The notes beneath the pieces were generated by a model. It made no database searches, had not been told where the DNA came from, and worked only from the letters and a program-made list of their open reading frames with translations. The position numbers and the translations under genes were made by a program. 64,000 bases of DNA from a bacterium. Lineage in GTDB: Bacteria; Patescibacteriota; Minisyncoccia; Phycocordibacterales; Phycocordibacteraceae. This document shows, piece by piece, positions 1,399-62,337 of this stretch. The stretch covers positions 800,001 through 864,000 of the forward strand of contig JBBCGK010000001.1 of assembly GCA_037200965.1 (NCBI GenBank), read 5' to 3'. Each line of letters starts with the position of its first letter. The first letter of the stretch is position 1.

Positions 1399-3291
1399 AT
1401 GAAAATGGATATGAACAAACAAAGCTCAAACAATAAAAAAGTACACCTCACCTCCGCCAATCTCTCCGAGGAGAAGCTGTTTGAGCTACGCCGCATCCTT
1501 CCCGAAGCGTTCAGCGAAAACAAGATTGACTGGGAGAAGCTCCGCACCGTTCTTGGTGACGCAGTAGACGCCCATATCGAGAAGTTCGGCTTTACCTGGG
1601 CAGGAAAAAGCAACGCTATCAAGAATGTTTTGATACCAAGCAAAGCCACACTCAACCCCGCTCCCGACGAGAGCGTGAAGTTCGATGAAAGCGAGAATCT
1701 CTTTATCGAAGGCGACAACCTCGAAGTCTTGAAGCTCTTGCAAAAAGCGTACTTCGAGAAGGTGAAGATGATTTATATAGACCCGCCATACAACACGGGC
1801 GGCGACTTCGTGTATAAGGACAACTTTGCCGCACCGCTCGACAACTATCTCAAGCAGACCGGCCAGAAGAACGGCAACGGCGAGCATCTCACAACCAACA
1901 AGGAGACCAACGGCCGCTTCCACAGCGACTGGCTTTCAATGATGTACCCACGCCTCAAGCTCGCGTGGAATCTTTTGCGTGATGATGGAGTGATATTTGT
2001 TTCGATTGACGATAACGAAGTGCATCATTTGCGAATACTAATGAATGAGATTTTTGGTGAGGAAAACTTCATCACTAATTTTGTTTGGCACTCTAGTACA
2101 GGTGGTGGTATCAGAAGCAAGTTTGCAAACCAGTCTCATCAATACGTTCTATGCTATGCAAAGAGTGTAGAAGACGTTGAGATGTTCTATGCGCCTCTTT
2201 CTGAAGATGCGAAGAAGCAATATAAGAAAGAGGATGAAAAAGGAGTCTATCGGGAGAAGGATTTTGCTTGGAAAAACTCATCGTGGGGAGCAAATCAAAA
2301 ATACTTCATCGAGTGTCCTGATGGTGAAAAAGCGAGACCAAAGGACGGGTATCTTTACCGCTTCATCGAACCAACTTTCAAGGAGAGTCTGGCAAATAAT
2401 ATGGTTGTCTTCAAAGAAGCAAGAAATAGTCCACTGGTAAATGAAAAAGGCGAGCAATCAAAATGGAACATCTATATCAAAAAGTATTTAGGTGATGGGA
2501 CAGGTGCTCCTTCATCAGTCATTCCGCGAGATTTAGTAGGAATCAATAATGAAGGCACTACAGAACTCAATGAACTGTTTGGTTCGAGTTTGTTTGAAAG
2601 CCCGAAGAATGTCCGGCTTTTGACATACCTACTCTCGTTAGCAGATAGCGATGATGGCGACATAATCCTCGATTTCTTTGCTGGCTCTGGTAGCACCTCT
2701 CACGCAGTGATGGCTCTGAACCAAAAGGATGGAATCAATAGAAAGTGGATTGTGGTTCAACTTCCAGAAAAGACTGACACGGATAGTGCCGCGTACAAAG
2801 CTGGATACAAAACCATTGCTGAACTTTCTGTAGAACGCATACGTCGCGCCGCGAAAAAGCTGGATGTCCAAGACGGCTTCAAGGTATTTAGACTGGCAGC
2901 ATCAAACTACCCAGAGAATACTTTTGAGTTCGACCCAGACAAGGCCGAGGAAGAGAACAAGGCGGCCTTCGAGGATTATTTGAAGCAAGCAAAGCGCGCC
3001 AAGCTTATTGACGACCTAGACGAGACGAGCGTCATCTACGAAAACATCGTCAAGGAAGGATTCTCGCTCAACTCCAAGATTCAGGAAGGCGTGCCAGGAA
3101 ACAACAAGGTCTACACCATCACCGACGGCGACCGGCAGTTTTCTATCTGCCTCGACCGTTCGATTGATGACACGACCGTAAAGAACATCACGGAGTGGGC
3201 TAAAGGAGCGACCTTTATCTGCTTCGATAATGCGCTCTCTGACAGCCAGAAAGCAAACCTCGGCCTCCACGTGGAGCTGAAAACGATATAA
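1399..3291 (+). CDS. mod: Type III restriction-modification methyltransferase (Mod, N6-adenine beta-class)
   Basis: DPPY motif (IYIDPPYNTGGDF) precedes the FxGxG SAM motif (LDFFAGSGSTSHAV). About 630 aa, directly upstream of res. ATG at 1399 has an AAGG RBS; the ORF is open from 1309. Confidence 0.85.
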   Translation: MKMDMNKQSSNNKKVHLTSANLSEEKLFELRRILPEAFSENKIDWEKLRTVLGDAVDAHIEKFGFTWAGKSNAIKNVLIPSKATLNPAPDESVKFDESENLFIEGDNLEVLKLLQKAYFEKVKMIYIDPPYNTGGDFVYKDNFAAPLDNYLKQTGQKNGNGEHLTTNKETNGRFHSDWLSMMYPRLKLAWNLLRDDGVIFVSIDDNEVHHLRILMNEIFGEENFITNFVWHSSTGGGIRSKFANQSHQYVLCYAKSVEDVEMFYAPLSEDAKKQYKKEDEKGVYREKDFAWKNSSWGANQKYFIECPDGEKARPKDGYLYRFIEPTFKESLANNMVVFKEARNSPLVNEKGEQSKWNIYIKKYLGDGTGAPSSVIPRDLVGINNEGTTELNELFGSSLFESPKNVRLLTYLLSLADSDDGDIILDFFAGSGSTSHAVMALNQKDGINRKWIVVQLPEKTDTDSAAYKAGYKTIAELSVERIRRAAKKLDVQDGFKVFRLAASNYPENTFEFDPDKAEEENKAAFEDYLKQAKRAKLIDDLDETSVIYENIVKEGFSLNSKIQEGVPGNNKVYTITDGDRQFSICLDRSIDDTTVKNITEWAKGATFICFDNALSDSQKANLGLHVELKTI

Positions 3292-3293
3292 CT

Positions 3294-5924
3294 ATGAAGT
3301 TCAAGTTTGACGCAAACCAAGATTTTCAAATAAACGCAGTCAACGCCATCGTTGGCGTCTTTGAAGGTCAGCCGAAGCGTCAAAGTGTGGTAGTAAATGT
3401 GCCCGCACTTTCCGTTTCCGGCTCATTGCCGCTCCAAACTACATACGGCATCTATCCGAACGAGCTGACGCTTTCCGACGAGGAGGTGTTTGCCAACGTC
3501 TGGAAGATTCAAGAGCAAAACAAAATCGGCAATGGCGGCACGGTTGAGGAGTACGACTTTTCTATCGAGATGGAGACGGGTACGGGTAAGACGTATGTGT
3601 ACCTTCGTACCGTCTTTGAACTCAACAAGCAATACGGATGGAAGAAGTTTATCGTTCTCGTGCCGTCCGTCGCCATCCGCGAGGGCGTCATCAAGACGCT
3701 CCAAATCACCAAAGACCACTTCGCCGAGCTGTACGACAACGTGCCGTACCGCTTCTACGAGTACCAGTCCAAGAACATCTCGCAGGTGAAGCGCTTTGCG
3801 GAATCCAGCAACCTGGAGATTATGGTGATGACGGTAGGTGCGTTCAACAAGGACGCGAACGTGCTCTATGCCGCCCGCGACCAGATGCAGGGCGAGCAGC
3901 CTATCAGCTACATCCAGCGCAGCAACCCCGTCCTCATCCTCGACGAGCCGCAGAATATGGAAGGTGAAGCGACGAAGGAGGCGCTCAAGAACTTCAACGC
4001 GCTTGCACGCCTGCGATACTCCGCGACGCATCGCAATCCGTACAACCTCATGTACCAGCTCACGCCGTTCGATGCGTATCAGCTCGGCCTCGTAAAGAAG
4101 ATTGAGGTGTATTCCGTTACGGATGACGACACCGGCATCTCGCGCCCGTCGCTCAACCTCATCTCCGTTGAATCCGGCAAGGCGCTCAAGGCAAAGTTAG
4201 AGGCCATCGTGAAAGATGCCGACGGCGCATTGAAGCGCAAGAAGCTCACCGTCAAACAGAACGACGACCTCGCGCAGAAGACCGGCAACGACGTATACGC
4301 CGGCTATATCGTGGACGAGCTTGACGCCGATGCGCCAGACCTCGGGCAGATTGGTAGGATTCGCTTTCGCAACAACGTGGAGATTCGCCAGGGTGAAGGC
4401 GTAGCAAACAACAACGAGCAAGTGATGCGCGAGCAGATTGAGCAGACCATCCGCCGCCACTTCGAGAAACGCAACCAGCTCCGCGATATGGGCATCAAGG
4501 TGCTCTCCCTCTTTTTCATAGACAAGGTAGACAACTACGTTCAATCAGACGGGTTTATCCGCTCTGCGTTCATAGCCGAGTTCAATCGCCTCAAGAAAGA
4601 CTATGGCGCTGACGGCATGGACGTGGATACCGTCCACAAGGGATATTTCGCCAAGCGCGGCGAGGAGTATTTGGAGCGAGAGTCCAGCATCGCCGAGAAC
4701 CAGGAAGCATACGAGCTGATTATGAAGGACAAGGAGCGCCTGCTTTCCTTCGATGAGCCGACGGAGTTCATCTTCTCGCACTCCGCACTCAAGGAAGGAT
4801 GGGACAACCCAAACATTTTCAATATCTGCACCCTGCGCGAGACCGTTTCAGTCATCCGCAAGCGCCAGGAGATTGGCCGAGGTATGCGCCTCTGCGTCAA
4901 TCAGGACGGAGAGCGTATTTTCTTGCGCAGCGTCAACCTGCTCTCCGTGATTGCAAACGAGAGCTATACGGAATACGTCTCATCGCTCCAGGGCGAATAC
5001 GAGGAGGACGGTATCTACAAGTCTGCGCCGTTGCCGAACAATGCCAAGCGAAAGACCACGGTGAAGCTCAAGAAAGATTTTGATAAGGACACGGACTTTG
5101 CTGGTATCTGGGAACGCATCTCGAAGAAGACCCGCTATGTCGTGCAGGTTGATAGCGAGCGCGTCATCGAAGCGTCCGCAAAGCAGATTGCGAAGCTCCA
5201 TCTCGCAAAGCCCAAGATGCGCGTCGAGCGCGCGGGCGTGAACATCGCGGCCGAAGGCATCACCGCAAACATCGTAGGCACCCGTGCCGAGGATTTGAGC
5301 CAGACCAAACGCACCATTGACCCTATCGAACTCATCAAAAACGAGACCAAGCTGACGCGCCACACGGTCGCGGAGATTTTGGCGAAAGCGGACAATACCG
5401 ACTCCTTCCTCAAGAATCCCGAACGCTTCTGCTTCGAGGCAACGCGCATCATCAAGGCCGAGCTGGTGAAGGATTACGTTTCCCAGATTCGCTATGAGGT
5501 ACTGCCGGAGCAGTATGACCTCAAGCAGTTCGAGGACATCCCGAGCTACAAGGACGCGACGCACAAGGTGAACAACTCCATCTACGACGCCATCGTGTAT
5601 GACTCCGACGTGGAGAAGAACTTTGCCGTCGCCCTCGATGCCGACGAGCGCGTGAAGCTCTTTATCAAGATGCCCAACTGGTTCAAGGTGAACACGCCTA
5701 TCGGCGGCTACAACCCCGACTGGGCAATCGTTACGGCCAAGCGAGACCTCCAGGGCAATGAGGAGAAGGAGCGCGTGTATTTCGTGATTGAGACGAAGGG
5801 CGACATCTCCAACATGCGCGAGAGCGAAGGACAAAAGATTGCTTCCGCCAAAAAGCACTTTGAAGTCATCGAGGTGAACTACAAGGAGGTCGAGAATTAT
5901 GGACAGTTTGCTGAACAACTATGA
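3294..5924 (+). CDS. res: Type III restriction endonuclease Res subunit (SF2 helicase plus C-terminal PD-(D/E)xK nuclease)
   Basis: Walker A METGTGKTYV, DExx-like ILDEPQN, C-terminal VIETKGD nuclease motif. 876 aa, 3 nt after mod. Confidence 0.85.
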   Translation: MKFKFDANQDFQINAVNAIVGVFEGQPKRQSVVVNVPALSVSGSLPLQTTYGIYPNELTLSDEEVFANVWKIQEQNKIGNGGTVEEYDFSIEMETGTGKTYVYLRTVFELNKQYGWKKFIVLVPSVAIREGVIKTLQITKDHFAELYDNVPYRFYEYQSKNISQVKRFAESSNLEIMVMTVGAFNKDANVLYAARDQMQGEQPISYIQRSNPVLILDEPQNMEGEATKEALKNFNALARLRYSATHRNPYNLMYQLTPFDAYQLGLVKKIEVYSVTDDDTGISRPSLNLISVESGKALKAKLEAIVKDADGALKRKKLTVKQNDDLAQKTGNDVYAGYIVDELDADAPDLGQIGRIRFRNNVEIRQGEGVANNNEQVMREQIEQTIRRHFEKRNQLRDMGIKVLSLFFIDKVDNYVQSDGFIRSAFIAEFNRLKKDYGADGMDVDTVHKGYFAKRGEEYLERESSIAENQEAYELIMKDKERLLSFDEPTEFIFSHSALKEGWDNPNIFNICTLRETVSVIRKRQEIGRGMRLCVNQDGERIFLRSVNLLSVIANESYTEYVSSLQGEYEEDGIYKSAPLPNNAKRKTTVKLKKDFDKDTDFAGIWERISKKTRYVVQVDSERVIEASAKQIAKLHLAKPKMRVERAGVNIAAEGITANIVGTRAEDLSQTKRTIDPIELIKNETKLTRHTVAEILAKADNTDSFLKNPERFCFEATRIIKAELVKDYVSQIRYEVLPEQYDLKQFEDIPSYKDATHKVNNSIYDAIVYDSDVEKNFAVALDADERVKLFIKMPNWFKVNTPIGGYNPDWAIVTAKRDLQGNEEKERVYFVIETKGDISNMRESEGQKIASAKKHFEVIEVNYKEVENYGQFAEQL

Positions 5925-10170: not shown

Positions 10171-11304
10171 TTGCCATCCTGCACAAGTTCAGATACATAT
10201 GGCACTCCTCCTAACTGAGGAGCGATGCGTCAATTCAACATACTGAAGGATACCGAGGGCTGGTTGTATATGCGCGAGCGGAGCATACGCTTCCTGCATA
10301 TGAGGAACAACGACGAGGTGCGGCATCGGGTCAAGGTGCTGGACTTCTGGAAAACGCACGGGGAGCGTGCGGCCAGGGACGCCTTCAGCGTCTCTCGCCG
10401 CACGCTCTTCCGTTGGCAGGCGAAGCTCGACCGCGCGCACGGGAGACTCGACGCGCTCGATCCCAAGTCGACGGCACCGAAGAATCGGAGGAGACGCATC
10501 GTCCTCCCCGAGGTCGAGACGTTCATCCTGAAGGAGCGCGCGGAGCATCCGAGGCTCGGCAAGGCGAAGCTCGCAGCCCTGCTGCGGGAGGACGGGTACC
10601 GGGTATCCGAATCGTATGTCGGGAGGGTCGTCGCGGACCTCAAGAGGAGAGGGCTGCTGCTCCCGCACAAGCCGCTCTCATACTATGCGCGAAGCGGCAC
10701 GTATCGGGAGAAGCCCGTATCGAAGCGCACGAAGCTGCGCAGGCGGCACAAGCGGGGCATGGAGCTCGACACCGTCGTCCGCTTCATCGACGGCGTGAAG
10801 CGGTACGTCCTGACCGCCATCGATGTCGAGAAGAAGTTCGCCTTCGCCGGCGCGTATACCGTCCACTCCTCCGCGTCCGCCGCCGATTTCCTCGCGCGCG
10901 TCATCGCGGTGTGCCCCTTCGACATCACGGAGCTCCAGACCGACAACGGCCCGGAGTTCGCCAAGAACTTCGAGGCGGGGTGCCGCGCCCTCGGCCTCAC
11001 CCACTTCAATACGTTTCCCCGCAGCCCGAAGATGAACGCGTTCGTCGAGCGGTTCAACCGGACGATCTCGGAGGACTGCATCATGCTCAATCGGCCGCTC
11101 CTGCGGGACGACGTCGCGGCATTCAACCTGAAGCTGGTCGACTGGCTGCTCTGGTACAACGCCCGGCGTCCGCACGAGTCCCTGGGACAGGTGCCGCCGC
11201 TCCGGTATATACTCTCCTCATTAACGGCCGAGGAGTGCCAGAGGTACTGGACGCGTACACATCCTTGACAGAATTTAGACCAGGCTGCATTGTGGCGTCG
11301 GCAA
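10171..11304 (+). mobile_element. IS481-family insertion sequence (boundaries tentative)
   Basis: Single rve/DDE transposase ORF. Imperfect inverted repeats TTGCCATCCTGCACAAG (10171-10187) and reverse complement of CTGCATTGTGGCGTCGGCAA (11285-11304) share TTGCC...CACAA cores. Followed by a sharp GC shift. Confidence 0.35.
10225..11268 (+). CDS. IS481-family DDE transposase (N-terminal HTH plus integrase-core rve domain)
   Basis: TAIDVEKK..., LQTDNGPEF, HFNTFPRSPKMNAFVERFNRTI motifs typical of the IS481/IS3 integrase core; 347 aa. Confidence 0.8.
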   Translation: MRQFNILKDTEGWLYMRERSIRFLHMRNNDEVRHRVKVLDFWKTHGERAARDAFSVSRRTLFRWQAKLDRAHGRLDALDPKSTAPKNRRRRIVLPEVETFILKERAEHPRLGKAKLAALLREDGYRVSESYVGRVVADLKRRGLLLPHKPLSYYARSGTYREKPVSKRTKLRRRHKRGMELDTVVRFIDGVKRYVLTAIDVEKKFAFAGAYTVHSSASAADFLARVIAVCPFDITELQTDNGPEFAKNFEAGCRALGLTHFNTFPRSPKMNAFVERFNRTISEDCIMLNRPLLRDDVAAFNLKLVDWLLWYNARRPHESLGQVPPLRYILSSLTAEECQRYWTRTHP

Positions 11305-31467: not shown

Positions 31468-33468
31468 ATGCATATGGTTCCAAGGAACCATATTGCCGTG
31501 GCCATAACTACTTCGCTAAAGACCGGTTTCCTCCTCCTCGTCCTTGCAGGGTTGCTGGTTGCGGGCACGGCGGCGCACGCGGCTCCGCGCGTCTCTCCGT
31601 ACGGACCGGGCGAAACGCTCGCGCCCGACTGCCTTCCGGGCGAGGCGAACTGCAGCGTGCACGTGTCGACGAGCGATATCGCCGAAGGGGCGAATGCTTA
31701 TTACAGCGACGCGCGCGTGCTCTCGTATCTCGATTCTCTCGACGCCAGCCGGTTCTTTTCGACGACCTCGGCCGAGTACCTCCTTTCGCAGGGCGGCAGC
31801 GCCTCGTTCTCAAATGCGAGCATCACGAATGCCACGACGACGAACCTGTTTGCTTCGAACCTGACGCTTGGCACGCTCACGGGGTTTCTGAGGGCGACTG
31901 CGGGGGTGGTTGCGACGGCGCTCGTGAACCTGGCGTCGGACGTAACGGGCATATTGCCGATCGCAAACGGCGGCACGGGCAATCCGGCGGGCGGAACAAC
32001 GAACGGCGTGGAATATTATGACGGCCTCAAACTTACGAACGGATCGGGCTTCGTCTTCGACGGAAGCCATGTCGGCATCGGAACGACGACGCCGGCGTTT
32101 CCGTTCGTGCTTTCTGGAGCAAATTCCTCGACGACGTACCTTGATCCGAGCATCGGGGTTCCTGTCGTCCCGCAGGCGCTCCTTTCGACTTCGTATTCCG
32201 CCCCGGGCACCACCAATTTCGCAAATCTCTTTGTCGACACGACCGAGCGATACACCACCGCACAGGCGGGCGGCACCAACTACGGCATTTACGACAGCGT
32301 TACGATTCCCGCATCCGCGACGGTCGCCCAGCCTTCCATCGCGGCTCTTGGCGTATTTGCGAACCACCGGGGATCGGCGCCGATGTCGACCCTCTACGGC
32401 GCGAATCTGATTGCACGGTCAAGCGGGAGTGCGACGATAGCGAGCATGAACGGCTTTTTAGGATCGGTGCAGATAGCCGGCGGCACGGGCGCAACGTCGA
32501 CGAACGCGTCGGGCGTGACCGGAATCGTCGCGGTCACGTCTCCTTATAGCCGCATCACGAACGCCCAGGCCCTCTCCGCATCGCTTACGCTCGGCAACGC
32601 GAACGCGTCGTTTACGAACGGCTACGGGCTCAAGATCAACGACCTCATCAATACCGGAAGCATTACGAGCACCTACGGCGTCTATGTCGGGGATATAACC
32701 GCAGGCACGCAGACTAACCGGCCGTACTCCTTCTATGCGTTCGACGCGTCCGCGTACAATTATTTTGCCGGCAATACCGGCATCGGTACCTCAAGCCCGG
32801 CAACGGCGCTTGAAGTCGGCGGCGACGTCACCATCGACGCCATACTGAACTGCAACGGCCTTACCCAGGCGGTCGTCACCGACGCGAACGGGAAGCTGCA
32901 GTGCGGCGCGCTTACCCCTTCTGATAAGCGTCTCAAGACCAACATCGAACCGCTTGACGCGGCTTCCGGCCTTTCGCTTATCGAGAAACTCAGGCCGGTT
33001 TCGTACGACTGGAAAGATCCGCGGGTATACGGCAATTCGCCGCAGCTCCAGTACGGCTTCATCGCGCAGGAGGAGCGGGAGGTTGCGCCGAACCTGGTCG
33101 CCACCACGGCGCCGACCGCGCTTACGCCCGGCGAGACTTACGTATTCAATTATTTCGGCCTCATCGCGCCGATCGTAAAGGCTATTCAGGAACTTGACGC
33201 GCGCATCGTTGCGTTCGGAGAATCGTTTTCCTCGGCCGTGGCAACGTTTGGAGCGGTTACGACGCGCGACATAACGGTCGAGCAGGCGCTCTGCATCGGA
33301 AGCACCTGCGTTACGGAAGACGATCTCAAAGCGATTCTGTCGAATAACCGGATGCAGGCGCCGGCGCCTCCCCCGCCGCCCGCAGAGGAATCGGCCCCGG
33401 ATACCGCTTCGCCGGAAGAAGAAAGCGCGGATACGCCAAAGGACAGCGCGGATATCCCCGTTCCATGA
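31468..33468 (+). CDS. Tail-fibre-like secreted protein with C-terminal peptidase-S74 intramolecular chaperone auto-processing domain
   Basis: Signal/TM, long G/T/S/N/A-rich beta-repeat body, then SDKRLKTNIEPLDAASGLSLIEKLRPVSYDWK...GFIAQEEREVAPNLV, ending in a PPPPP/acidic tail. Confidence 0.65.
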   Translation: MHMVPRNHIAVAITTSLKTGFLLLVLAGLLVAGTAAHAAPRVSPYGPGETLAPDCLPGEANCSVHVSTSDIAEGANAYYSDARVLSYLDSLDASRFFSTTSAEYLLSQGGSASFSNASITNATTTNLFASNLTLGTLTGFLRATAGVVATALVNLASDVTGILPIANGGTGNPAGGTTNGVEYYDGLKLTNGSGFVFDGSHVGIGTTTPAFPFVLSGANSSTTYLDPSIGVPVVPQALLSTSYSAPGTTNFANLFVDTTERYTTAQAGGTNYGIYDSVTIPASATVAQPSIAALGVFANHRGSAPMSTLYGANLIARSSGSATIASMNGFLGSVQIAGGTGATSTNASGVTGIVAVTSPYSRITNAQALSASLTLGNANASFTNGYGLKINDLINTGSITSTYGVYVGDITAGTQTNRPYSFYAFDASAYNYFAGNTGIGTSSPATALEVGGDVTIDAILNCNGLTQAVVTDANGKLQCGALTPSDKRLKTNIEPLDAASGLSLIEKLRPVSYDWKDPRVYGNSPQLQYGFIAQEEREVAPNLVATTAPTALTPGETYVFNYFGLIAPIVKAIQELDARIVAFGESFSSAVATFGAVTTRDITVEQALCIGSTCVTEDDLKAILSNNRMQAPAPPPPPAEESAPDTASPEEESADTPKDSADIPVP

Positions 33469-54917: not shown

Positions 54918-55556
54918 ATGAACATCACGAAACTCGGGCACGCGTGCCTGGTAGTCGAAGAGAGCGGGGTGCGGGTCCTCGTCGATCCCGGAAGCTTCAC
55001 GACGGAACAAAACGAACTTTCCGGACTCGATGCGGTCGTGATAACGCACGAGCATCAGGATCATCTTAATATCGCGTCGCTCAAGAAAGTCATAGACAAT
55101 AATCCCGATATAGTCATCATCGCGAACGCTTCGATCGGTGCTGTGCTCGAGAAAGAAGGAATTGCCTATGCCAGGGTAGGCGACGGAGAAAAGATCGAAG
55201 TGAAAGGGCTGGCTATCACCGGTTCCGGCAAGGATCATGCGACCATCTGCGACGGCTTCGGCCTTGTCGAGAATACCGGCTATTTCATCGGCAGCCGCTT
55301 CTTCTATCCGGGCGATGCGTTTCATAATCCGGGCATACCGGTCGGGGTGCTCGCGCTTCCGGTCGCGGGCCCGTGGATGAAAATCAGCGAAGCGGTCGAC
55401 TATGTGAAAGCGGTACGCCCCGAAGTCTGCTTTCCGGTACATGACGGCATGTATAAGTCCGGCTTTAACATCGCCGATCGTATCGGCGAAGCACTCGTTA
55501 CGCCTCTTGGCATCGATTATGTGCCGATGAAGGACGGCGAGAACAGGGAATTCTGA
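54918..55556 (+). CDS. MBL-fold metallo-hydrolase
   Basis: VVITHEHQDHL (HxHxDH) motif. Confidence 0.75.
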   Translation: MNITKLGHACLVVEESGVRVLVDPGSFTTEQNELSGLDAVVITHEHQDHLNIASLKKVIDNNPDIVIIANASIGAVLEKEGIAYARVGDGEKIEVKGLAITGSGKDHATICDGFGLVENTGYFIGSRFFYPGDAFHNPGIPVGVLALPVAGPWMKISEAVDYVKAVRPEVCFPVHDGMYKSGFNIADRIGEALVTPLGIDYVPMKDGENREF

Positions 55557-56257
55557 TGAAAGCAGCCGTACACCGGGCTGACAGCAGGGGTGGCGCGGAT
55601 CACGGCTGGCTCAAGACCCGTCACAGCTTCAGTTTCGCGAACTGGCACGATCCGGAGCGCGACGGTTTCGGCGCGCTCCGGGTGTTGAACGACGATGTCA
55701 TCGCGCCCCACCAGGGCTTCGGTGCCCATCCGCACCGGGATTTCGAGATCGTTACGATTGTCACGCGCGGCGCGGTTACGCACGAGGACGGCCTCGGCAC
55801 GCGCGCGAAAGTCGCCGCGGGAGAGGTGCAGGTGATGAGCGCGGGAACCGGCGTCGTGCACTCCGAAAAGAACGAGGAAGACGAACCGCTCGAGCTTTTC
55901 CAGCTTTGGATCGTTCCTAAGGAGCGGGGAGTCGCCCCGCGCTATGACCGGAAGAGGTTTGACGAAGCCAGCCGGAAGAACGCGCTCCAGCTTCTGGTCT
56001 CCGACACCGGGGAAGACGGCTCGCTCATGATCCGTCAGGATGCGCGGATATATCTGGCCGACCTTGCCGCGGGAGCGGAAATTCCGTATCAGCTGCCACC
56101 CGGGCGCGGGGCGTATGTATTCGTAGTCGAAGGCGAAGTGAAAATCGGAGAAGTCCTGCTCAAGCGCCGCGACGCCCTTGCCGTTTCGGATAGTTCCTCC
56201 TTCTCCATAACGCCTGTCACGGCCGCAAACATCCTTGTCATCGACGTGCCGGTATGA
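55556..56257 (+). CDS. Pirin family protein
   Basis: HGWLKTRHSFSFANW...GFGAHPHRDFEIVT pirin N-terminal cupin motifs. Confidence 0.8.
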   Translation: MKAAVHRADSRGGADHGWLKTRHSFSFANWHDPERDGFGALRVLNDDVIAPHQGFGAHPHRDFEIVTIVTRGAVTHEDGLGTRAKVAAGEVQVMSAGTGVVHSEKNEEDEPLELFQLWIVPKERGVAPRYDRKRFDEASRKNALQLLVSDTGEDGSLMIRQDARIYLADLAAGAEIPYQLPPGRGAYVFVVEGEVKIGEVLLKRRDALAVSDSSSFSITPVTAANILVIDVPV

Positions 56258-57504
56258 ACGGCGCGCATGACGTGATCGTCGTCGGGGGCGGAGCGTCGGG
56301 GATGATGGCCGCCGCGGTCGCGGCAAGGCGCGGCAAGCGCGTGCTTCTTCTCGAGAAGAACGCGCGGCTCGGGGAGAAGCTTTCGATATCGGGCGGCGGC
56401 CGCTGCAATATCACGAACGCGGAGTTCGATACGCGCGCGTTTCTTGCCCGCTACGGCGCCGCCGCGGATTTTCTCCATTCCGCCTTCGCGCAGTTTGGCG
56501 TGCAGGACACTTTTGATTTTTTCGAGGACCTCGGTCTTCCGCTCAAAGTCGAGGCCGGGAAGCGCGCGTTTCCGGCAAGCGAGCGCGCCACGGACGTCGT
56601 GCGCGCGCTCATCGAAGCGCTTCGCGCGGGCAGGGCCGAGGTTCGCACGGGCACGGCCGTCGGGCAGATCATCGCGAAGGACGGACGTATCGAAACGATT
56701 ATTGCGGGAGGGACAGAGTATCGCGCGGCTTCCTATGTTTTCTCGACCGGCGGCGTCTCGCATCCGGAGACCGGTTCGACGGGCGACGGTTTCGGATGGC
56801 TCCGGGAACTCGGGCATGCCGTAGCGGAGCCGACGCCGACCATCGTCCCTTTGGCCACCAAAGAAACGTGGGGGCGGGAGCTTTCCGGCGTCTCGATCGA
56901 CGGCGTGAAAATCGCGTTCGAGCGCGAGGCGTTCCCGGGAGAAAAGCCCAAGCGCTTCTCAAGGGAAGGAAGGGTGCTTTTCACGCATTTCGGCATCTCG
57001 GGTCCGACCGTGCTTAACGCGGCGGGGAAAGTGGCGGATCTTCTCCATGAGGGCGCGGTATCCGCGAGGATCGATCTCTATCCGGCGCTCGATGCCGGGC
57101 ATCTCGACCGGGAGATCACGGGCAGATTCGACGCGAACAAGAACAAATCGGCGCGAAACGCGCTCAAGGAATTCCTTCCGCCGGGCACCCCGCAGGTATT
57201 TTTGAAGCTTGCGGGCCTTGACCCGGAAAAGAAGGCGCACAGCGTGACGCGGGACGAGCGCCGGGCGCTCGCAAATCTCCTTAAATCCCTTCCGCTTACC
57301 ATCGCCGGGCTCATGGGATTCGAACGCGCCGTGGTCGCCGACGGCGGCGTTCCGCTTGTCGAAATCGATATGCGTACCATGCGTTCGAAGAAGACCGGGA
57401 ACCTTTTCGTCACCGGCGATCTTTTGAATATTGAGAGGCCTTCAGGCGGCTATTCGCTCCAGCTGTGCTGGACCACCGGGTACGTGGCGGGGAGCGCGGT
57501 ATAA
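56254..57504 (+). CDS. HI0933/BaiN-like FAD-dependent oxidoreductase
   Basis: DVIVVGGGASGMMAAAVAARRGKRVLLLEKN...ISGGGRCNITN. Confidence 0.8.
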   Translation: MNGAHDVIVVGGGASGMMAAAVAARRGKRVLLLEKNARLGEKLSISGGGRCNITNAEFDTRAFLARYGAAADFLHSAFAQFGVQDTFDFFEDLGLPLKVEAGKRAFPASERATDVVRALIEALRAGRAEVRTGTAVGQIIAKDGRIETIIAGGTEYRAASYVFSTGGVSHPETGSTGDGFGWLRELGHAVAEPTPTIVPLATKETWGRELSGVSIDGVKIAFEREAFPGEKPKRFSREGRVLFTHFGISGPTVLNAAGKVADLLHEGAVSARIDLYPALDAGHLDREITGRFDANKNKSARNALKEFLPPGTPQVFLKLAGLDPEKKAHSVTRDERRALANLLKSLPLTIAGLMGFERAVVADGGVPLVEIDMRTMRSKKTGNLFVTGDLLNIERPSGGYSLQLCWTTGYVAGSAV

Positions 57505-57511
57505 TCGGTCT

Positions 57512-58114
57512 ATGAAAAGGACCTGTATCGTGCTGTTTCTTCCTGCTCTGTTTGTTGTCGCAGCCGTCTCAAGCCCGCTTGCCGCCTCGGCCCACGTATT
57601 CAAGGAGGACGGGGCGATCGGAGCGCTCATGTATACCGACCTCGGCCATACGCCCCCCGCGGGCGTGCCGGTGAAATTCTTCCTCCAGTTCCGGGATTCG
57701 CAGGTACCGCTCCAGCTGCAGCACGATTACGAATTCACCATATCCTTTACGGATTCGGATAACGCTTCGAGCACGGTGCCGTCCGACGATTTCCGCTACG
57801 TCGCCGCAACCGAACTCGACTTCTATCATACGTTCCCCGGAAAAGGAGAATACACGCTGACCGTCTCGGGCGCGCCGCTTGCCGAAGGGCTTGCCCCTTT
57901 CACGCTTCGCTACGATCTTCCCGTTGCGGAGGCGGGGGAAGCCGTAGCGGATGATTCCCACGAAGGCATGGATAGCATGCACCACGACCACAGCCTGTTT
58001 GGCGAGCATGCCGTACACTTCATCCTCTTCGGGGGCGTTATCGTCCTCGTCGTATTCCTCATCGCCCGCGATCTGTGGCGCAGGCGGCGGGAGCCCGGAA
58101 AGCATACGGACTAG
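57512..58114 (+). CDS. Exported protein with C-terminal TM anchor and His-rich segment
   Basis: Signal peptide, DSHEGMDSMHHDHSLFGEH, C-terminal TM plus RRRRE tail. Confidence 0.45.
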   Translation: MKRTCIVLFLPALFVVAAVSSPLAASAHVFKEDGAIGALMYTDLGHTPPAGVPVKFFLQFRDSQVPLQLQHDYEFTISFTDSDNASSTVPSDDFRYVAATELDFYHTFPGKGEYTLTVSGAPLAEGLAPFTLRYDLPVAEAGEAVADDSHEGMDSMHHDHSLFGEHAVHFILFGGVIVLVVFLIARDLWRRRREPGKHTD

Positions 58115-58123
58115 AATGTTAGA

Positions 58124-59875
58124 GTGAAACCCATGCAGCTGTTTGCCAAAAAAGAAAAGCCTGTACATACGAGTTTCGGCCCGCCATATGCCGTGCTCAA
58201 TCTCTCCAAAGTCGGTCTGCGGTATTTCCGTTTCATGATCAAGTCGTCTCACGCTTCGAGGGATCGGCTCGTGCAGAAGTTCATAGACCATCCGAACGTC
58301 GGCTGGATATTCTCTGCGGAGGGCTGGTTCAATCTCGCCGTGGGCGTTTGGGCAAAGGACAATGCGGAAATCAACGATATCAGTTCCTCGATTCGCGCAA
58401 CGTTGAATCCGGGCGACGAGATTGTGTACCAATCCGAGCTCACGAGCCTCTACGGCTTCGGGAACCGGCCAGTCGCGGGAGAGGTCCGCGCGATGGCCAT
58501 AGTCGATGCCGTTTATACTCCGGTCGATCTCGACCATCTTACATTTGATTATCTTAAACTTGTCGCGCTCGACAGTTCGCTCCCGGAACGTGATGCCGCA
58601 GAAATCCTTGGAATAACGGAGGAAGCACTAACGCGGTTGCGAAGTGAGCTCGAGGCCGCGGGTGTCATAGTCGGGTACCAGGACCGGCTCAACTACACGG
58701 GTACGTATTACAAAGTATTCATCGATACGCTCCGTGCCAAGACGCCCGATGCGGTCCAGAAGCTTACCGATCGGCTCTGGGGAGATATGCGGTGCATTTA
58801 CATAGAACGCGCCAACGGAAAATACGATTTCGAATTCGAACTTGTGCTTGAGCACAAGGCGGCTATATGGGAATATGTCAGGGATTTTCCGGAGCACAAA
58901 ATAGCGGTCCTGACGAAGAACTTGTATACCAATCTCTACCCGCTCAATAAAATCGCGAACTTGCGGGAGATTAAGGATTCGATTCTCGCGCAAAGTGGAA
59001 GCGTTATCGATCTGCGCAACTCGAAACTCTGGTATCTGAATCCGAGAGGCGCGAACGCATATCTGAACATATATGAAAACAGGAACTATTTCGAGGCGAT
59101 GGAAAAGAGCGAACTCGATCTGTTCAGCGATATAACCGCTCATATCCGGGAGAAAAGCGGTGCGGAAAGCTACAGCCTCATAGACATCGGCAGCGGGGAC
59201 GGGCTCAAGGCAAGAATTTTCATAGAAAAGCTCGGAGAAGAAAAGATAAAAGCCTATTATCCGGTCGATATACAACCGATCGAACTTGCGGCCGCCCTTA
59301 AGTCGCATGCGGCCGGCGCATACGCGAAACATCCGGTGCTTCTGGATATCGAAAATCTATCGGCACGGTTTCCCTTAAAGCTTCACCCCGGCGAAGGACA
59401 GATAACCATTTTCCTTGGCGGCACATATGGAAACTTCAAGAACGAACGGATCAACGCGTATCTGAAACCGCTATTGCGCGATCCGTCTGCCGTGGTGCTC
59501 GTTTCGATGCCGATTGTGTCCGGGAAAACCGATGCCGATATGATCGAACTCTATTCGGGGAAACAGATGGAAGATATGGCCTTTGGTCCTCTGCTCCAGA
59601 TAGGCTTCGCGCTTGGCGACTTCGAGGCGAATCCGGCGCATCCCGATCTGCGCATACAGCCGGTCGTCGAGGATTCCAGGCTTGTTACCACATTTACCCT
59701 TAAAAACGATAAGATAATTCTTGGAAAGCGTTTTGATAAAGGGACTGTTTTCAAGATGACCACTTCGTGGAAGCCGACGCTTGAGGAAGTTCGTGCCGCG
59801 CTCGAACGTGATTTTGTTATCGAGAAGATGTTCCACAACAGCGAGATGTCCATTTCCATTATTAGGGCAAAATGA
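58124..59875 (+). CDS. Fusion protein: RAM-like domain + Lrp/AsnC (HTH+RAM) + EgtD-like SAM methyltransferase (Methyltransf_33)
   Basis: HTH LKLVALDSSLPERDAAEILGITEEALTRL; RAM YYKVFIDTLRAK...YDFEFELVLE; C-terminal LIDIGSGDGLKARIF...YYPVDIQPIEL...ITIFLGGTYGNFKNE matching EgtD G-x-G-x-G, YxPiDIS and FLGSTIGNF motifs. GTG 58124 or ATG 58133. Confidence 0.6.
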   Translation: MKPMQLFAKKEKPVHTSFGPPYAVLNLSKVGLRYFRFMIKSSHASRDRLVQKFIDHPNVGWIFSAEGWFNLAVGVWAKDNAEINDISSSIRATLNPGDEIVYQSELTSLYGFGNRPVAGEVRAMAIVDAVYTPVDLDHLTFDYLKLVALDSSLPERDAAEILGITEEALTRLRSELEAAGVIVGYQDRLNYTGTYYKVFIDTLRAKTPDAVQKLTDRLWGDMRCIYIERANGKYDFEFELVLEHKAAIWEYVRDFPEHKIAVLTKNLYTNLYPLNKIANLREIKDSILAQSGSVIDLRNSKLWYLNPRGANAYLNIYENRNYFEAMEKSELDLFSDITAHIREKSGAESYSLIDIGSGDGLKARIFIEKLGEEKIKAYYPVDIQPIELAAALKSHAAGAYAKHPVLLDIENLSARFPLKLHPGEGQITIFLGGTYGNFKNERINAYLKPLLRDPSAVVLVSMPIVSGKTDADMIELYSGKQMEDMAFGPLLQIGFALGDFEANPAHPDLRIQPVVEDSRLVTTFTLKNDKIILGKRFDKGTVFKMTTSWKPTLEEVRAALERDFVIEKMFHNSEMSISIIRAK

Positions 59876-60993
59876 GCAATTCAGCAGTACACGACCACAT
59901 CATCATCGGCGCCGGAATAGCCGGACTCTCGGCCGCGTACCACTTCGCCAAAGACGGCCATTCCGTCGTCGTGCTCGAGGCGACTGACGGCAAGAGCGGC
60001 GCGAGCTTCGCCTCGACCGCGGAAATGAATCATGATCCGGACGCGAAGTGGGAGAAGGTCGTGGAGCGGTTCGGCATTGAAGGCGCGCGGGAAGTCTGGG
60101 AACTGTCCGACTTCGCCATGGAGAAGCTCGCGGATTTCGCGCACCGCCCCGGAGAAGAGCATTTCGGCACCGAGCGGCTTCCCGCGCACCTGTTCTCGTA
60201 CAAAGACGGAGACGCGGGCATGCTTCGCGGCAAGTACGAGTTTTATAAGAGCATCGGCGCGAACGCAGAATTTACGGAAAACGGAAGCGCCCTCCATGAA
60301 AGCTTCAAAGCCGTCCTTACGATCAGGGACGAAGGCGCAACTAACAATCAGATGATACTCAAGGAACTCGCGCACGGCATGCGGGAATTGGGAGGAGAAA
60401 TCCACCATCACCGCCGCGCAGTCCGTATCGAAGAAAGCGCAGACGCCGTGCGTGTTGAGACCGAAAGCGGCGAACTTGTTTCCGGAAGAAGCGTACTTAT
60501 CGCCACGGGCGACGGCCGCGGGCTCGTACCCAAGGATCTTCTCATAGGGCGCATCCGCACGTTCGTCATCGCCTATGAAAAGCATGGTATGCGGGATATT
60601 TTCCGCGACTCGCTCATGTGGGATACCGACGAGCCGTTCCACTATGTCCGTCCCTTCGACCACACGCGGTTATGGGTGGGCGGGGAAGATGCGGATGAAA
60701 GCGCATACGACCCGAAAGACGAAAAAGAAAAGTATGCCGCGCTCGAGGACTATTCCAAAAACGTTCTGCATGTCGACGATGCATACAAACGGGACGGGCA
60801 GTGGAGCGGCGTCTTCTTCCCGAGCGATCGCGGCCTTCCGTATATCGGCGAGGTGCCGGGCAGCCGGATACGGCTGAGCCTCGGCTTCGGGGGCTCCGGC
60901 ATCCTCACGAGCTTCATCTCCGGCTATCTGCATGCCGCATGGCTTCGGGGCGAACTCCCCGAATACCGGCGGCTGTTTGCGGTGGGGTGGTAA
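59872..60993 (+). CDS. FAD-dependent oxidoreductase (DAO / sarcosine-oxidase-like)
   Basis: N-terminal HIIIGAGIAGLSAAYHFAKDGHSVVVLEA dinucleotide-binding motif; 373 aa; ATGA overlap with the upstream gene. Confidence 0.75.
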   Translation: MSNSAVHDHIIIGAGIAGLSAAYHFAKDGHSVVVLEATDGKSGASFASTAEMNHDPDAKWEKVVERFGIEGAREVWELSDFAMEKLADFAHRPGEEHFGTERLPAHLFSYKDGDAGMLRGKYEFYKSIGANAEFTENGSALHESFKAVLTIRDEGATNNQMILKELAHGMRELGGEIHHHRRAVRIEESADAVRVETESGELVSGRSVLIATGDGRGLVPKDLLIGRIRTFVIAYEKHGMRDIFRDSLMWDTDEPFHYVRPFDHTRLWVGGEDADESAYDPKDEKEKYAALEDYSKNVLHVDDAYKRDGQWSGVFFPSDRGLPYIGEVPGSRIRLSLGFGGSGILTSFISGYLHAAWLRGELPEYRRLFAVGW

Positions 60994-61036
60994 TACGGGA
61001 AAACTTCCCGGGCACGGCGTGCCCGGGAAGTCAGCG

Positions 61037-61570
61037 CTATACGTCGCGCACCTTGCGGACGATAGGTATGCGGACGCGAAGCATGCTTTCGCCTCGATTG
61101 CCGTATTTCACCCGAAACCCCTGCACGCCGTCGGTAAAGGTCTTGGCGTAGATGCCCATCGCGTTGAAGTTGAGCGTATACGCCCATACGACCAGGGTGA
61201 CGTGGCTCTCGATGCGCGTGTTCGTTTCTTGCGTCCACGCGATCACTTCGCGCAGACTTGCTTCGGTAAGCTTCGGGCCGAGCTTTTGGCCTTGGAACCG
61301 AGGGTCGATGCCGATCTGCTCGAGCTCGACGGCGGGTTCGGCCCGATGAAAACCGCCATGCGTTTGCCATCCCGCGTATCCGGCAACTTCGCCGTCGATT
61401 TCGATGACGAAATACTGATACAGCGGGAAGGACTTGAACCAACACGTCGCCCATTGGAGAGCGCCATCCGGCAAGTCCCGGTCGCCAAGGAATACGCCCG
61501 CATTGATCGCCGCTATACGTGGCAAGTCTTTTTCTTCGGCCCTGCGGACCGTTGCCTGTTGTTCACTCAC
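61037..61570 (-). CDS. GNAT family N-acetyltransferase
   Basis: IDPRFQGQKLGPKLTEASL acetyl-CoA motif. Confidence 0.7.
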   Translation of the reverse strand: MSEQQATVRRAEEKDLPRIAAINAGVFLGDRDLPDGALQWATCWFKSFPLYQYFVIEIDGEVAGYAGWQTHGGFHRAEPAVELEQIGIDPRFQGQKLGPKLTEASLREVIAWTQETNTRIESHVTLVVWAYTLNFNAMGIYAKTFTDGVQGFRVKYGNRGESMLRVRIPIVRKVRDV

Positions 61571-61632
61571 GCTCTCTGCTCCTATAAGGTTCGCCCCATC
61601 ACTGAGAACTTGTTTCCCGTATGCGAAGTTGC

Positions 61633-62337
61633 TTATCCAATCCCTAATGCTTTCAAAAATCCCTTGAGCGGCGGACCCTCGATCGGTCGGAACGCCCCGG
61701 ACGGGAGGCTCCCGAGTGCGATGTTCATCACCTTGGTGCGTTTGAGTTCGACCGTGTCGTTATGGAGCATCGAGACCATCCGGCGTATCTGGTGCTTCTT
61801 GCCTTCGGTGAGGGTGACGGCGAAGGCCTTTTCGCCAAGCAGCTTCACCTTTGCGGGCTTGGTCACATAGCCGTCTTCGAGTTCGACGCCTTTCTCCATG
61901 TGCTCCTTAAAGCTGGGCCGCAGCTTGTCGCGCGTCTTCACGACATATTCTTTCTCGTGGTCGTGATCGGGATTCAGCAGCCGATCGGTCACGCGCCCGT
62001 CGTTCGTGAGGATGATGAGGCCGTGCGAAGCCTTATCAAGACGGCCCACGGGGAAGACATCCGCAAGCTCGGGGAAGCTGCTCAAGGCGCCTTTTATGTC
62101 TTCTTCGTCTTCTTCCTGCGGCGAGTGGGTAATGACGCCCTTGGGCTTATGGTACGCGAAATATTTGTATTCCTTGGGCTTGTGGCCCGAGCGGAGTTCT
62201 ACTTTGTCGCCCTCCTCCACCTTGTCGCCAAGCACGGCGATGCGGTCGTTGAGGAGCACCTTCTTGGCTTCGATAAGCTCGTCGGCACCGCGCCTTGTCG
62301 CGTGGCCCTGGCGGGCGAGGTATTTATTGATGCGCAT
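61633..62337 (-). CDS. Pseudouridine synthase (RsuA/RluB family) with N-terminal S4 domain
   Basis: MRINKYLARQGHATRRGADELI S4 domain; catalytic GRLDKASHGLIILTNDG. Confidence 0.8.
   Translation of the reverse strand: MRINKYLARQGHATRRGADELIEAKKVLLNDRIAVLGDKVEEGDKVELRSGHKPKEYKYFAYHKPKGVITHSPQEEDEEDIKGALSSFPELADVFPVGRLDKASHGLIILTNDGRVTDRLLNPDHDHEKEYVVKTRDKLRPSFKEHMEKGVELEDGYVTKPAKVKLLGEKAFAVTLTEGKKHQIRRMVSMLHNDTVELKRTKVMNIALGSLPSGAFRPIEGPPLKGFLKALGIG

Follow-up and report, generated by a model that had tools for sequence, protein, structure and literature searches.

Gene content of the locus

The analysed window comprised 64,000 nucleotides of a patescibacterial contig (JBBCGK010000001.1 of assembly GCA_037200965.1, positions 800,001 to 864,000). 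It held a co-directional gene string on the forward strand. An HI0933-like flavoprotein of the aminoacetone-oxidase family (56254..57504, +) was identified with PF03486 at E 4e-74 and TIGR00275 at 394 bits. It was followed by a gene for a 194-aa protein with a signal peptide, a His-rich composition and a C-terminal transmembrane segment (57530..58114, +; gene call in locus L064), which stops 9 nt ahead of the GTG at 58124. This GTG opens an ORF for a fusion protein of 583 aa (58124..59875, +), or 580 aa if translation starts at the ATG at 58133. The next gene (59872..60993, +) starts with ATG and encodes a 373-aa FAD oxidoreductase of the DAO family, matching PF01266 over its full length with E 2e-43. 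Based on the ORF positions, the two genes overlap by ATGA at 59872-59875. A preliminary description of this DNA had placed both ORFs and the overlap at these positions, which was confirmed.

The same gene order was present in three independent assemblies of the organism. There, the fusion gene was called from the ATG at 58133, giving an identical 580-aa product (P0001) in all three. The GC content of the fusion gene was 0.51, compared to 0.59-0.63 in the flanking genes, which is a hint of an insertion into an already existing gene string. Scanning this region for promoters and terminators produced no more matches than shuffled sequence did. The DAO gene is probably co-transcribed with the fusion gene in this species.

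A homology search yielded 122 homologues of the fusion protein, which were mostly full length and showed 37-100% identity among the matches listed. Nearly all named members belonged to the Patescibacteria (CPR). The search for the same architecture, which the preliminary description had proposed, thus recovered a full-length, conserved fusion. Because of this, a frameshift or assembly artefact was rejected: three assemblies agree and more than 120 homologues exist, mostly of full length. Public records name the family either 'L-histidine N(alpha)-methyltransferase' or 'Lrp family transcriptional regulator', and several members were labelled as Lrp-family regulators by JGI. Neither name is justified. 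Literature searches combining EgtD, Lrp and Patescibacteria, or using PF10017, Methyltransf_33 and EgtD-like, returned nothing relevant, and the PF10017 matches were Plasmodium gene identifiers. The fusion family is conserved and uncharacterised.

Lrp/AsnC-derived N-terminal module

The fusion protein comprised a RAM1-HTH-RAM2 module followed by an EgtD-fold methyltransferase, as determined by profile searches, DSSP topology and structure searches. The AF2 model of the protein had a pLDDT of 86.8; the inter-domain geometry is that of this one model, with a pTM of 0.72. RAM1 (residues 17-111, 58172..58456, +) showed a ferredoxin-like DSSP topology with no HTH ahead of it and aligned with the first of the two RAM domains in tandem Lrp/AsnC proteins. 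Conservation within the protein was highest here, with a mean pairwise column identity of 0.54 and the invariant residues S28, G31, R33, Y34, P57, G67, W68, N80, E82, S104, E105 and L109. A degenerate AsnC-type helix-turn-helix followed at residues 135-181 (58526..58666, +), recognised by a profile match to AsnC/Lrp PDB chains at E 4e-6. This was the least conserved segment. Column identity in the recognition helix fell to 0.21, and the HTH region carried a net charge of -3.6 on average, compared with +3 in the HTH of E. coli Lrp. RAM2 (residues 182-269, 58667..58930, +) kept the G-x-Y-D hairpin motif as NGKYD at residues 231-235, and its GKYD fell on GDYD of PH1519/FL11 in the profile alignment. 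The module was connected to the methyltransferase by a conserved linker (residues 270-300, 58931..59023, +). It includes NLYTNLYPLNK, which is nearly invariant though of low pLDDT (AF2, below 50 at residues 275-278); T269, N270, L271, P273 and K276 were conserved in this region.

The relationship to Lrp was visible only by profile and structure searches. The family profile matched the AsnC/Lrp PDB chains 8q90, 2dbb and 1ri7 across HTH and RAM2 with E 4e-6 to 4e-5. In the Pfam scan of the window protein, PF01037, PF13404 and PF13412 were absent, and its sole HTH matches were weak and below cut-offs (HTH_Crp_2, E 0.006; LrpA, E 0.003). Among 29 family members, PF10017 was detected in 29, PF01037 in two (E <= 0.01) and an AsnC-type HTH in none. 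Two members, P0048 and P0077, retain the first HTH, detected as an extra HTH_24 at E 1e-11. The domain order given in the preliminary description therefore stood by profile and structure comparison, whereas the Pfam scan that it had suggested gave PF10017 alone, without PF01037 or PF13412. The N-terminal module is a RAM-HTH-RAM unit derived from Lrp/AsnC. Labelling the protein as a regulator is doubtful because the HTH is degenerate.

EgtD-like methyltransferase domain

Residues 301-583 (59024..59872, +) form a SAM-dependent methyltransferase domain of the EgtD fold (Methyltransf_33). PF10017 matched residues 303-463 of the window protein (profile positions 20-178 of 304) with E 6e-16 and a score of 58.7 bits (gathering cut-off 23). 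The complete two-domain EgtD fold was present, with a Rossmann domain and a substrate-binding domain, in agreement with the full EgtD-like methyltransferase recognised earlier from the translation.

Residues were mapped onto EgtD by hhalign and by MAFFT with 20 bridging stand-alone relatives, and both alignments agreed. The hhalign probability of the fusion domain against EgtD was 44.7%. Motif I (GxGxG; D354, G356, G358 and G360) and the equivalents of K92 (K362) and D113 (D382) were invariant or nearly so. In EgtD, the carboxylate of the substrate is contacted by Tyr56, Tyr206 and Ser284 and the alpha-amino group by Asn166, while Thr213 and Glu282 form the imidazole side (PMC8593015). The equivalents of the first group were kept: Y322 (Y56), Y477 (Y206) and N437 (N166) were invariant and S548 (S284) was at least 90% conserved. 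N437 lies in a GGTYGN motif conserved in the family. The imidazole side was lost. The position of E282 held T546, with T in nine members, I in two, and L, S, Y and M; the position of T213 held D484, with D, N, E and other residues in the family. Stand-alone relatives mostly carried a small or aliphatic residue at position 282 (A, G, I), and the fusion family mostly T. An engineered EgtD variant, M252V/E282A, binds tryptophan (title of PDB 4pip). The residue check thus had a divided outcome: residues binding the amino-acid backbone were kept and those reading the imidazole were lost.

Ergothioneine synthesis was rejected, as had been done in the preliminary description. In addition to the lost imidazole residues, the domain scored 43.9 bits with the EgtD equivalog TIGR03438, below its cut-off of 290.9, and partner genes of the EgtB, EgtC or EgtE kind were not found: the FGE-sulfatase, DinB_2 and GATase families were absent from the 20 largest other window ORFs and from the 84 immediate neighbours of homologues, which stem from 55 loci.

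Downstream oxidoreductase and gene neighbourhood

The AF2 model of the DAO protein had a pLDDT of 92.8. Its best Foldseek match was glycine oxidase (TM 0.83, 19% identity). The structural distance from the DAO protein was much the same for glycine oxidase, D-arginine dehydrogenase, MTOX, MSOX and DMGDH. Scores were far under the NCBIfam cut-offs for sarcosine, N-methyltryptophan and pipecolate oxidases (TIGR01377, 26.5 against 479.65; NF008425, 36.2 against 257; NF050086, 56.7 against 600). Of the proposed glycine/sarcosine-oxidase-like identity, membership of the DAO family stood and the assignment to a subfamily of N-methyl-amino-acid oxidases did not. ThiO, considered as an alternative subfamily at the outset, was not recovered either: its TIGR02352 score was 53.9 bits (cut-off 250.8), and F315, nearly invariant among the orthologues, aligned with R302, the residue with which glycine oxidase binds the carboxylate. 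The nearest relatives outside the CPR were DAO-Rieske fusions and oxidoreductases of about 400 aa from Flavobacterium, with about 28% identity.

For the neighbourhood analysis, 58 fusion loci were retrieved from genome and metagenome collections and searched by tblastn with all window neighbours and by all-vs-all ORF clustering. None of the 55 remaining unique loci yielded a DAO homologue; downstream sequence of at least 1.2 kb was available for 32 of the 58 loci retrieved. P0002, the nearest homologue of the fusion protein, was encoded on a contig without a DAO gene and with an HI0933-like gene immediately upstream of the fusion gene. Conversely, the closest DAO orthologue (68% identity, locus L020) stood in a syntenic block with the order HI0933-like gene, membrane protein, DAO and pseudouridine synthase, with no fusion gene. 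The window's 194-aa protein was 43% identical to the L020 ORF sitting immediately before DAO. The remaining DAO orthologues adjoined DUF2177, DUF1295, photolyase or Msr genes. Thus, the DAO gene adjoins the fusion gene in this species only, is not a conserved partner and is probably not part of the fusion system.

A universal operon partner was not found, as the 84 immediate neighbours matched 76 different Pfam families. The sole real recurrent neighbour was a heterogeneous class I methyltransferase in nine loci, and these upstream methyltransferases shared 24-27% identity with each other. Upstream neighbours were divergently transcribed in 9 of 46 cases, with no recurrent target gene. The largest ORF clusters besides the fusion gene consisted of antisense ORFs within it and were discarded as artefacts.

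Proposed function of the fusion protein

With moderate confidence, we propose that a tandem Lrp/AsnC regulator lacking its first HTH was fused to a catalytically active, SAM-dependent N-alpha-methyltransferase of the EgtD fold that acts on a substrate other than histidine and uses the RAM domains as a ligand module. An ancestral tandem regulator would have lost its first HTH, and the resulting RAM1-HTH-RAM2 unit would have been joined to the methyltransferase. The most likely substrate of the enzyme is a free amino acid other than histidine, or an alpha-amino-acid moiety that closely resembles one, with methylation at the alpha-amino group. RAM1 and RAM2 probably pack into a single intramolecular alpha+beta barrel resembling NirDL, which would bind a ligand and serve as an allosteric module, or serve in oligomerisation, and probably not as a sequence-specific DNA binder. 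The replacement of Y39 of EgtD by L305, the hhalign probability of 44.7% and the fact that Patescibacteria are not known to synthesise amino-acid betaines count against this proposal; the retained HTH fold and the extra HTH of some members count against the loss of DNA binding.

The latter features fit a one-component transcription factor or 'trigger enzyme', in which the EgtD-like domain would sense SAM/SAH or an amino acid, possibly still turning its ligand over, and the Lrp-like module would relay the signal to DNA through its HTH after dimerisation of the chains. Genuine tandem Lrp/AsnC regulators are clear homologues of the N-terminal module, the HTH fold is kept, P0048 and P0077 carry the additional HTH_24, and JGI labels point the same way. 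We nevertheless regard this role as unlikely. The recognition helix is the most variable part and the HTH is negatively charged; the Pfam AsnC-type HTH models, which match none of the 29 members, match stand-alone tandem relatives with E 1e-19 to 1e-27. Most members hold one HTH per pseudo-dimer, catalytic and substrate residues that a pure sensor does not need are invariant, and the few divergent upstream genes include no recurring target. A similarly low probability is given to a protein with two sites, in which the closed RAM1-RAM2 barrel would be a small-molecule site as in siroheme decarboxylase and the product would be novel and N-methylated. Such a protein might methylate an amino acid and signal its level to DNA via the residual HTH, or the ligand bound or processed in the barrel might be handed to the EgtD-like active site. 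Its product could be an amino-acid betaine or similar N-methylated metabolite, of a kind not known from Patescibacteria. The fusion may then have arisen by joining a regulator of DPANN archaea to a methyltransferase of bacterial origin.

The alpha-amino-acid moiety could instead be part of a macromolecule, for instance a peptide, the N-terminus of a protein or a tRNA with an aminoacyl- or acp-type group, with the Lrp-like module for docking. This is quite improbable. Neighbouring translation genes are expected by chance because patescibacterial genomes are rich in them, and the recurrent upstream methyltransferases are too dissimilar to each other to argue for it. All four residues clamping the carboxylate and amino groups are kept, which fits a free amino acid, and all Methyltransf_33 enzymes so far characterised are known to work on free amino acids. 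Very improbable is the pairing put forward in the preliminary description, a self-regulated module of N-methylation by the fusion protein and oxidative demethylation by the DAO protein. The co-directional ATGA overlap in three assemblies speaks for it, as does the fold that DAO proteins share with sarcosine, N-methyltryptophan and dimethylglycine oxidases. However, 4-nt overlaps are frequent in the window, where a crude gene map shows them in 7 of 42 pairs of genes on the same strand, and the lower GC content of the fusion gene hints at an insertion. The other 55 loci, including that of P0002, lack a DAO homologue, L020 has the membrane protein and DAO without the fusion gene, and further orthologues lie in other contexts. 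The DAO protein is also far under the cut-offs for N-methyl-amino-acid oxidases, and among solved structures it comes closest to glycine oxidase, with which it shares 17-19% identity but not the carboxylate-binding arginine. The coupling was therefore not borne out. The two genes are neighbours by chance at this locus, and the pairing should not be propagated.

Because the tiny genomes of Patescibacteria encode very little biosynthesis, a conserved enzyme of 580 residues is a useful lead into their small-molecule metabolism. Under the favoured reading of a non-histidine N-alpha-methyltransferase, it might yield a modified amino acid or a solute of the betaine type.

Comparison with known systems

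The oxidoreductase has the DAO fold and the FAD-binding GxGxxG in common with ThiO, MSOX, MTOX and D-arginine dehydrogenase (TM 0.71-0.84), at an identity of 15-20% to each. The methyltransferase domain is 17-19% identical to EgtD (PDB 4uy5, 4pim). In addition to the imidazole positions, Y39 of EgtD is changed to L305 and M252 to T/S, neither of which is assigned to the imidazole side, and EgtD is without the 280-residue Lrp-derived module at the N-terminus of the fusion protein.

The closest sequence relatives of fusion residues ~12-250 were tandem Lrp/AsnC proteins of DPANN archaea (315-335 aa; E 1e-27 to 1e-16), for example Woesearchaeota NQU78794.1 and Nanoarchaeota MFC1696997.1. They are organised as HTH-RAM-HTH-RAM, give two strong HTH_24/HTH_AsnC matches and carry no enzyme domain. 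The window protein shares the RAM-HTH-RAM order with them, but it is without the first HTH, its other HTH is degenerate and a methyltransferase is fused. This kinship may suggest inter-domain exchange among co-occurring ultra-small organisms.

Siroheme decarboxylase is an AsnC-derived tandem module acting as an enzyme, with its ligand bound within the barrel (PMC4835899). NirDL/AhbA-AhbB (PDB 4ch7, 4czc) shares 11-13% identity with the N-terminal module. NirDL has both HTHs and no methyltransferase, whereas the sequence relatives of the fusion module are regulators and not decarboxylases. A tetrapyrrole role, considered from the NirDL match, was set aside because of these regulator relatives; neither the scanned ORFs of the window nor the neighbours of homologues showed a tetrapyrrole context. 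If the proposed enzymatic role holds, the fusion family would join siroheme decarboxylase as a second case in which an enzyme has co-opted a tandem Lrp/AsnC module.

Gene layout and domain architecture

Two plus-strand ORFs were found exactly as first described, the fusion gene at 58124..59875 (GTG start, 583 aa) and the DAO gene at 59872..60993 (ATG start, 373 aa). The stop codon of the fusion gene overlaps the DAO start at 59872-59875 (...aaATGAgc...). The fusion-gene start is ambiguous. GTG 58124 lies 9 nt past an upstream stop codon, and an alternative in-frame ATG at 58133 yields a 580-aa product, the form called publicly in three independent assemblies (P0001, 100% identical). The first ~17 residues of the protein were unconserved and showed low pLDDT. 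The order HI0933-like flavoprotein, 194-aa membrane protein, fusion gene and DAO was common to all three assemblies of this organism. In the longest, a GNAT gene and a pseudouridine synthase gene followed, both on the minus strand. An assembly or frameshift artefact behind the long ORF or its adjacency to DAO was rejected, since the three assemblies agree and more than 120 full-length homologues exist.

A Pfam scan of the 583-aa protein returned Methyltransf_33 (PF10017, residues 303-463, E 6e-16) as the sole family. PF01037 and PF13412 were absent and HTH matches remained below threshold, so that the Lrp-like part required more sensitive methods. A profile of the 29-member family matched the AsnC/Lrp chains 8q90, 2dbb and 1ri7 in the PDB at E 4e-6 to 4e-5, covering the HTH and one RAM unit (profile positions 124-247). 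A confident AlphaFold2 model from the same family alignment (pLDDT 86.8, pTM 0.72) comprised RAM1 (residues 17-111), a three-helix HTH (138-178) and RAM2 (182-269), then a linker that is flexible though conserved, and finally a large alpha/beta domain (278-583). Foldseek searches against the PDB ranked EgtD first (E 8e-19, TM 0.81 normalised to EgtD, about 330 columns), followed by the tandem-Lrp enzyme NirDL (E 4e-11, 267 columns). Because profile, model and Foldseek revealed the Lrp-like part, the RAM/HTH/RAM/EgtD-like order of the preliminary description is correct, except that the first RAM is a complete domain and not a half domain.

Active site of the methyltransferase domain

The M. smegmatis EgtD sequence, checked against literature residue numbering and PDB fragments in HMMER output, served as reference. 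Alignments by hhalign and, independently, by MAFFT L-INS-i with 20 bridging stand-alone relatives gave an identical residue map. Invariant in the family were G356/G358 (EgtD G86/G88), D382 (D113), G432/T434 (G161/T163), N437 (N166), Y322 (Y56), Y477 (Y206) and Y313 (F47, aromatic character kept). K362 (K92) and F487 (F216) were conserved in 15/15 and S548 (S284) in 14/15 sequences of the C-terminal alignment. In EgtD, Tyr56, Tyr206 and Ser284 make up the binding site for the carboxylate of histidine, Asn166 binds its alpha-amino group, and Thr213, via a water molecule, and Glu282 face the imidazole (PMC8593015). The backbone-binding residues were thus kept, whereas the imidazole-side positions were replaced: E282 corresponds to T546 (variable, mostly T) and T213 to D484 (D/N and others). 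Further unconserved positions were T522 (M252; T/S and others) and L305 (Y39; L/V/M). The EgtD variant M252V/E282A binds tryptophan in PDB entry 4pip. From these alignments, we infer a working N-alpha-methyltransferase for a non-histidine alpha-amino acid or an identical moiety. The NCBIfam EgtD model TIGR03438 scored 43.9 bits against a cut-off of 290.9, which, with the changed E282 and T213 positions, upholds the earlier view that this is not an ergothioneine locus. The NCBI name 'L-histidine N(alpha)-methyltransferase' exceeds the evidence.

Role of the Lrp-like module

Mean pairwise column identity was 0.54 for RAM1, 0.48 for the methyltransferase, 0.44 for RAM2, 0.39 for the HTH region and 0.21 for the recognition helix. 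The HTH region carried a mean net charge of -3.6 (range -8 to +3), and none of the 29 family members reached E 0.01 with Pfam AsnC-type HTH models. This conservation pattern argues against a DNA-binding regulator. Residual or dimer-dependent DNA binding is possible, and with it an unlikely alternative in which the protein is mainly a transcription factor or trigger enzyme. RAM2 retained the G-x-Y-D hairpin (NGKYD), aligned to GDYD of the amino-acid-binding regulator PH1519/FL11; in RAM1, which is densely populated with invariant residues, the corresponding motif reads GWFN. In siroheme decarboxylase, an AsnC-derived tandem module is an enzyme with its ligand inside the barrel of two ferredoxin-like domains (PMC4835899). 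On this precedent, an allosteric, ligand-binding or scaffolding role is favoured for the module.

Genomic context offered a second alternative, in which the enzyme would methylate an alpha-amino-acid moiety on a macromolecule with the Lrp-like module docking. The only recurrent neighbour of the fusion gene was a class I SAM methyltransferase (Methyltransf_25/11/31). ORF clustering placed it at 9 loci, and 7 of the 84 scanned neighbour ORFs were of this kind; copies include L007:5172-5846, L018:5331-5930, L043:1289-2089, L047:5124-5924, L048:3124-3777, L050:40-702 and L058:90-707. It lay directly upstream on the same strand, except on L058 (opposite strand), and pairwise identity among the copies was only 24-27%. 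In one sub-clade, whose fusion proteins share 51-52% identity with that of the window, the order was archease (L046:3660-4067, L047:3970-4377), class I methyltransferase, fusion gene and RtcB (L043:4001-5464; also L046-L049). Archease and RtcB form an RNA-ligase pair. In another sub-clade (L010, L042, L045), the fusion gene lay between MetRS and TatD. These two sub-clades hint only weakly at an RNA- or translation-linked role, as genes of this type make up much of any patescibacterial genome. On balance, the best explanation, slightly more likely than not, is an N-alpha-methyltransferase that is regulated by its RAM domains, acts on an amino acid other than histidine and carries a vestigial HTH.

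The adjacent oxidase

The product of the DAO gene belongs over its full length to the DAO family of flavoenzymes (PF01266, E 2e-43; AlphaFold2 pLDDT 92.8). It fell below the cut-off of every NCBIfam model: AmaA pipecolate oxidase (56.7 bits, cut-off 600), ThiO glycine oxidase (53.9, cut-off 250.8), N-methyltryptophan oxidase MTOX (36.2, cut-off 257) and monomeric sarcosine oxidase soxA_mon (26.5, cut-off 479.65). The structural model was about equally similar to several enzymes at 15-20% identity, among them glycine oxidase (TM 0.83), D-arginine dehydrogenase, MTOX, proline dehydrogenase, DMGDH and MSOX. When HMMER aligns the protein to B. subtilis glycine oxidase, F315 falls on the carboxylate-binding R302, and this position is nearly invariant across the orthologue group. 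About 43 orthologues were found (41-68% identity), the few named ones from Patescibacteria; beyond them, identity drops to about 28%, with DAO-Rieske fusions and Flavobacterium oxidoreductases. The window's own DAO was not returned at 100% identity (best 68%) though the gene is called in assembly L064, which probably reflects how word-index searching or clustering is limited.

No homologue of this DAO (E <= 1e-4) occurred at any of the 58 fusion-gene loci, of which 55 were unique and 32 extended at least 1.2 kb downstream. The 84 immediate neighbours of the fusion gene matched 76 different Pfam families, DAO not being among the recurrent ones. In P0002, the nearest fusion homologue (76% identity), a pilin-like gene comes next. 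The DAO orthologue closest to that of the window (68% identity) is part of a syntenic block (L020:2938-7832 and window 56254-62337; HI0933-like 75%, membrane protein 43%, pseudouridine synthase 86% identity). There, DAO directly follows the membrane protein without the fusion gene between them, and the GNAT gene is also missing, with a Ferric_reduct-like membrane protein instead. The DAO neighbour common to both is the His-rich membrane protein, not the methyltransferase. Orthologues at L022:6001-8837 and L023:4784-7535 (49-53% identity) adjoin DUF2177, DUF1295/steroid-dehydrogenase-like, NmrA, photolyase and MsrA/B genes. This resembles a (photo-)oxidative-stress neighbourhood, hinting at a different oxidase role.

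Overlaps of 4 nt were routine in the window, occurring in 7 of 42 same-strand pairs of a crude gene map, including pirin/HI0933-like. GC and GC3 of the fusion gene were 0.511 and 0.61, those of its neighbours (55556-58114, 59872-62337) 0.58-0.63 and 0.71-0.76. The lower GC mildly supports insertion into a pre-existing gene string and is compatible with a relatively recent event, although it is within the overall range of the window (16th percentile). Fusion gene and DAO are probably co-transcribed in this species. The loci, neighbours and orthologue contexts examined gave no supporting evidence for a functional module, and the methylation/demethylation coupling proposed in the preliminary description was not borne out; its fusion, sensor-like module and non-ergothioneine role stand.

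Distribution and history of the fusion family

The protein search yielded 122 homologues, most of 565-600 aa; those listed aligned with at least 95% of the window protein at 37-76% identity. Named organisms were Paceibacterota, Kaiserbacteria, Moranbacteria and Parcubacteria, and genome contigs added Uhrbacteria, Peregrinibacteria and Peribacteria. A few contigs carry the labels Saccharibacteria, Bacillota, Micrarchaeota and Pseudobdellovibrionaceae, and these may be mis-binned. The family is compact, since only about six full-length fusion clusters (at 50% identity) emerged when 1.84 billion cluster representatives were searched exhaustively with the profile.

Two outer shells surrounded it. 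One held Methyltransf_33 proteins that stand alone (about 300-330 aa), Magasanikbacteria being one source. The other comprised Lrp/AsnC proteins of 315-335 aa in the tandem order HTH-RAM-HTH-RAM, each giving two strong matches to HTH_24/HTH_AsnC (E 1e-19 to 1e-27); their residues ~55-300 matched profile positions 12-250. Named examples (P0273/P0386, P0284) from the DPANN archaea Woesearchaeota and Nanoarchaeota were the closest relatives of the N-terminal module. In two fusion proteins, P0048 (648 aa) and P0077 (633 aa), a further HTH_24 (E 1e-11 and 4e-6, respectively) lies at the N-terminus and completes the order HTH-RAM-HTH-RAM-methyltransferase, probably the ancestral architecture. In the simplest history, a full tandem Lrp module was fused to the methyltransferase, and most lineages, this one among them, later lost the first HTH. 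One fusion-gene copy (L012) was located on an 82-kb contig binned as Micrarchaeota; together with the DPANN relatives, it could reflect inter-domain transfer or mis-binning. Read with genetic code 11, the Peregrinibacteria and Moraniibacteriota copies (L011:7989-9701, L016:8001-9306) are interrupted, each giving at least two ORFs; pseudogene decay, frameshifts from sequencing or recoding may explain this.

Elsewhere, the window contained a type III restriction-modification pair (1309-5924; N6_N4_Mtase, then ResIII helicase and RE_endonuc), and on L019 a similar pair precedes the fusion gene by about 3.5 kb. An rve-family transposase (10225-11268) and a 666-aa protein with a tail-fibre-like Peptidase_S74 endosialidase-chaperone domain (31468-33468) suggest mobile or phage-derived DNA.

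Comparison with known systems

No description of the family was found in the literature searched, and public records name it inconsistently. The C-terminal half of the protein belongs to the Methyltransf_33 superfamily, yet it failed the tests for EgtD proper on TIGR03438 score, imidazole-side residues and EgtB/EgtC/EgtE neighbourhood (none among the 84 immediate neighbours); its predicted mechanism is EgtD-like, as in the aromatic-amino-acid betaine synthase relatives of EgtD. Lrp/AsnC regulators are homologues of the N-terminal half, which does not match their sequence signatures; in structure, it resembles the enzyme-co-opted tandem module of NirDL.
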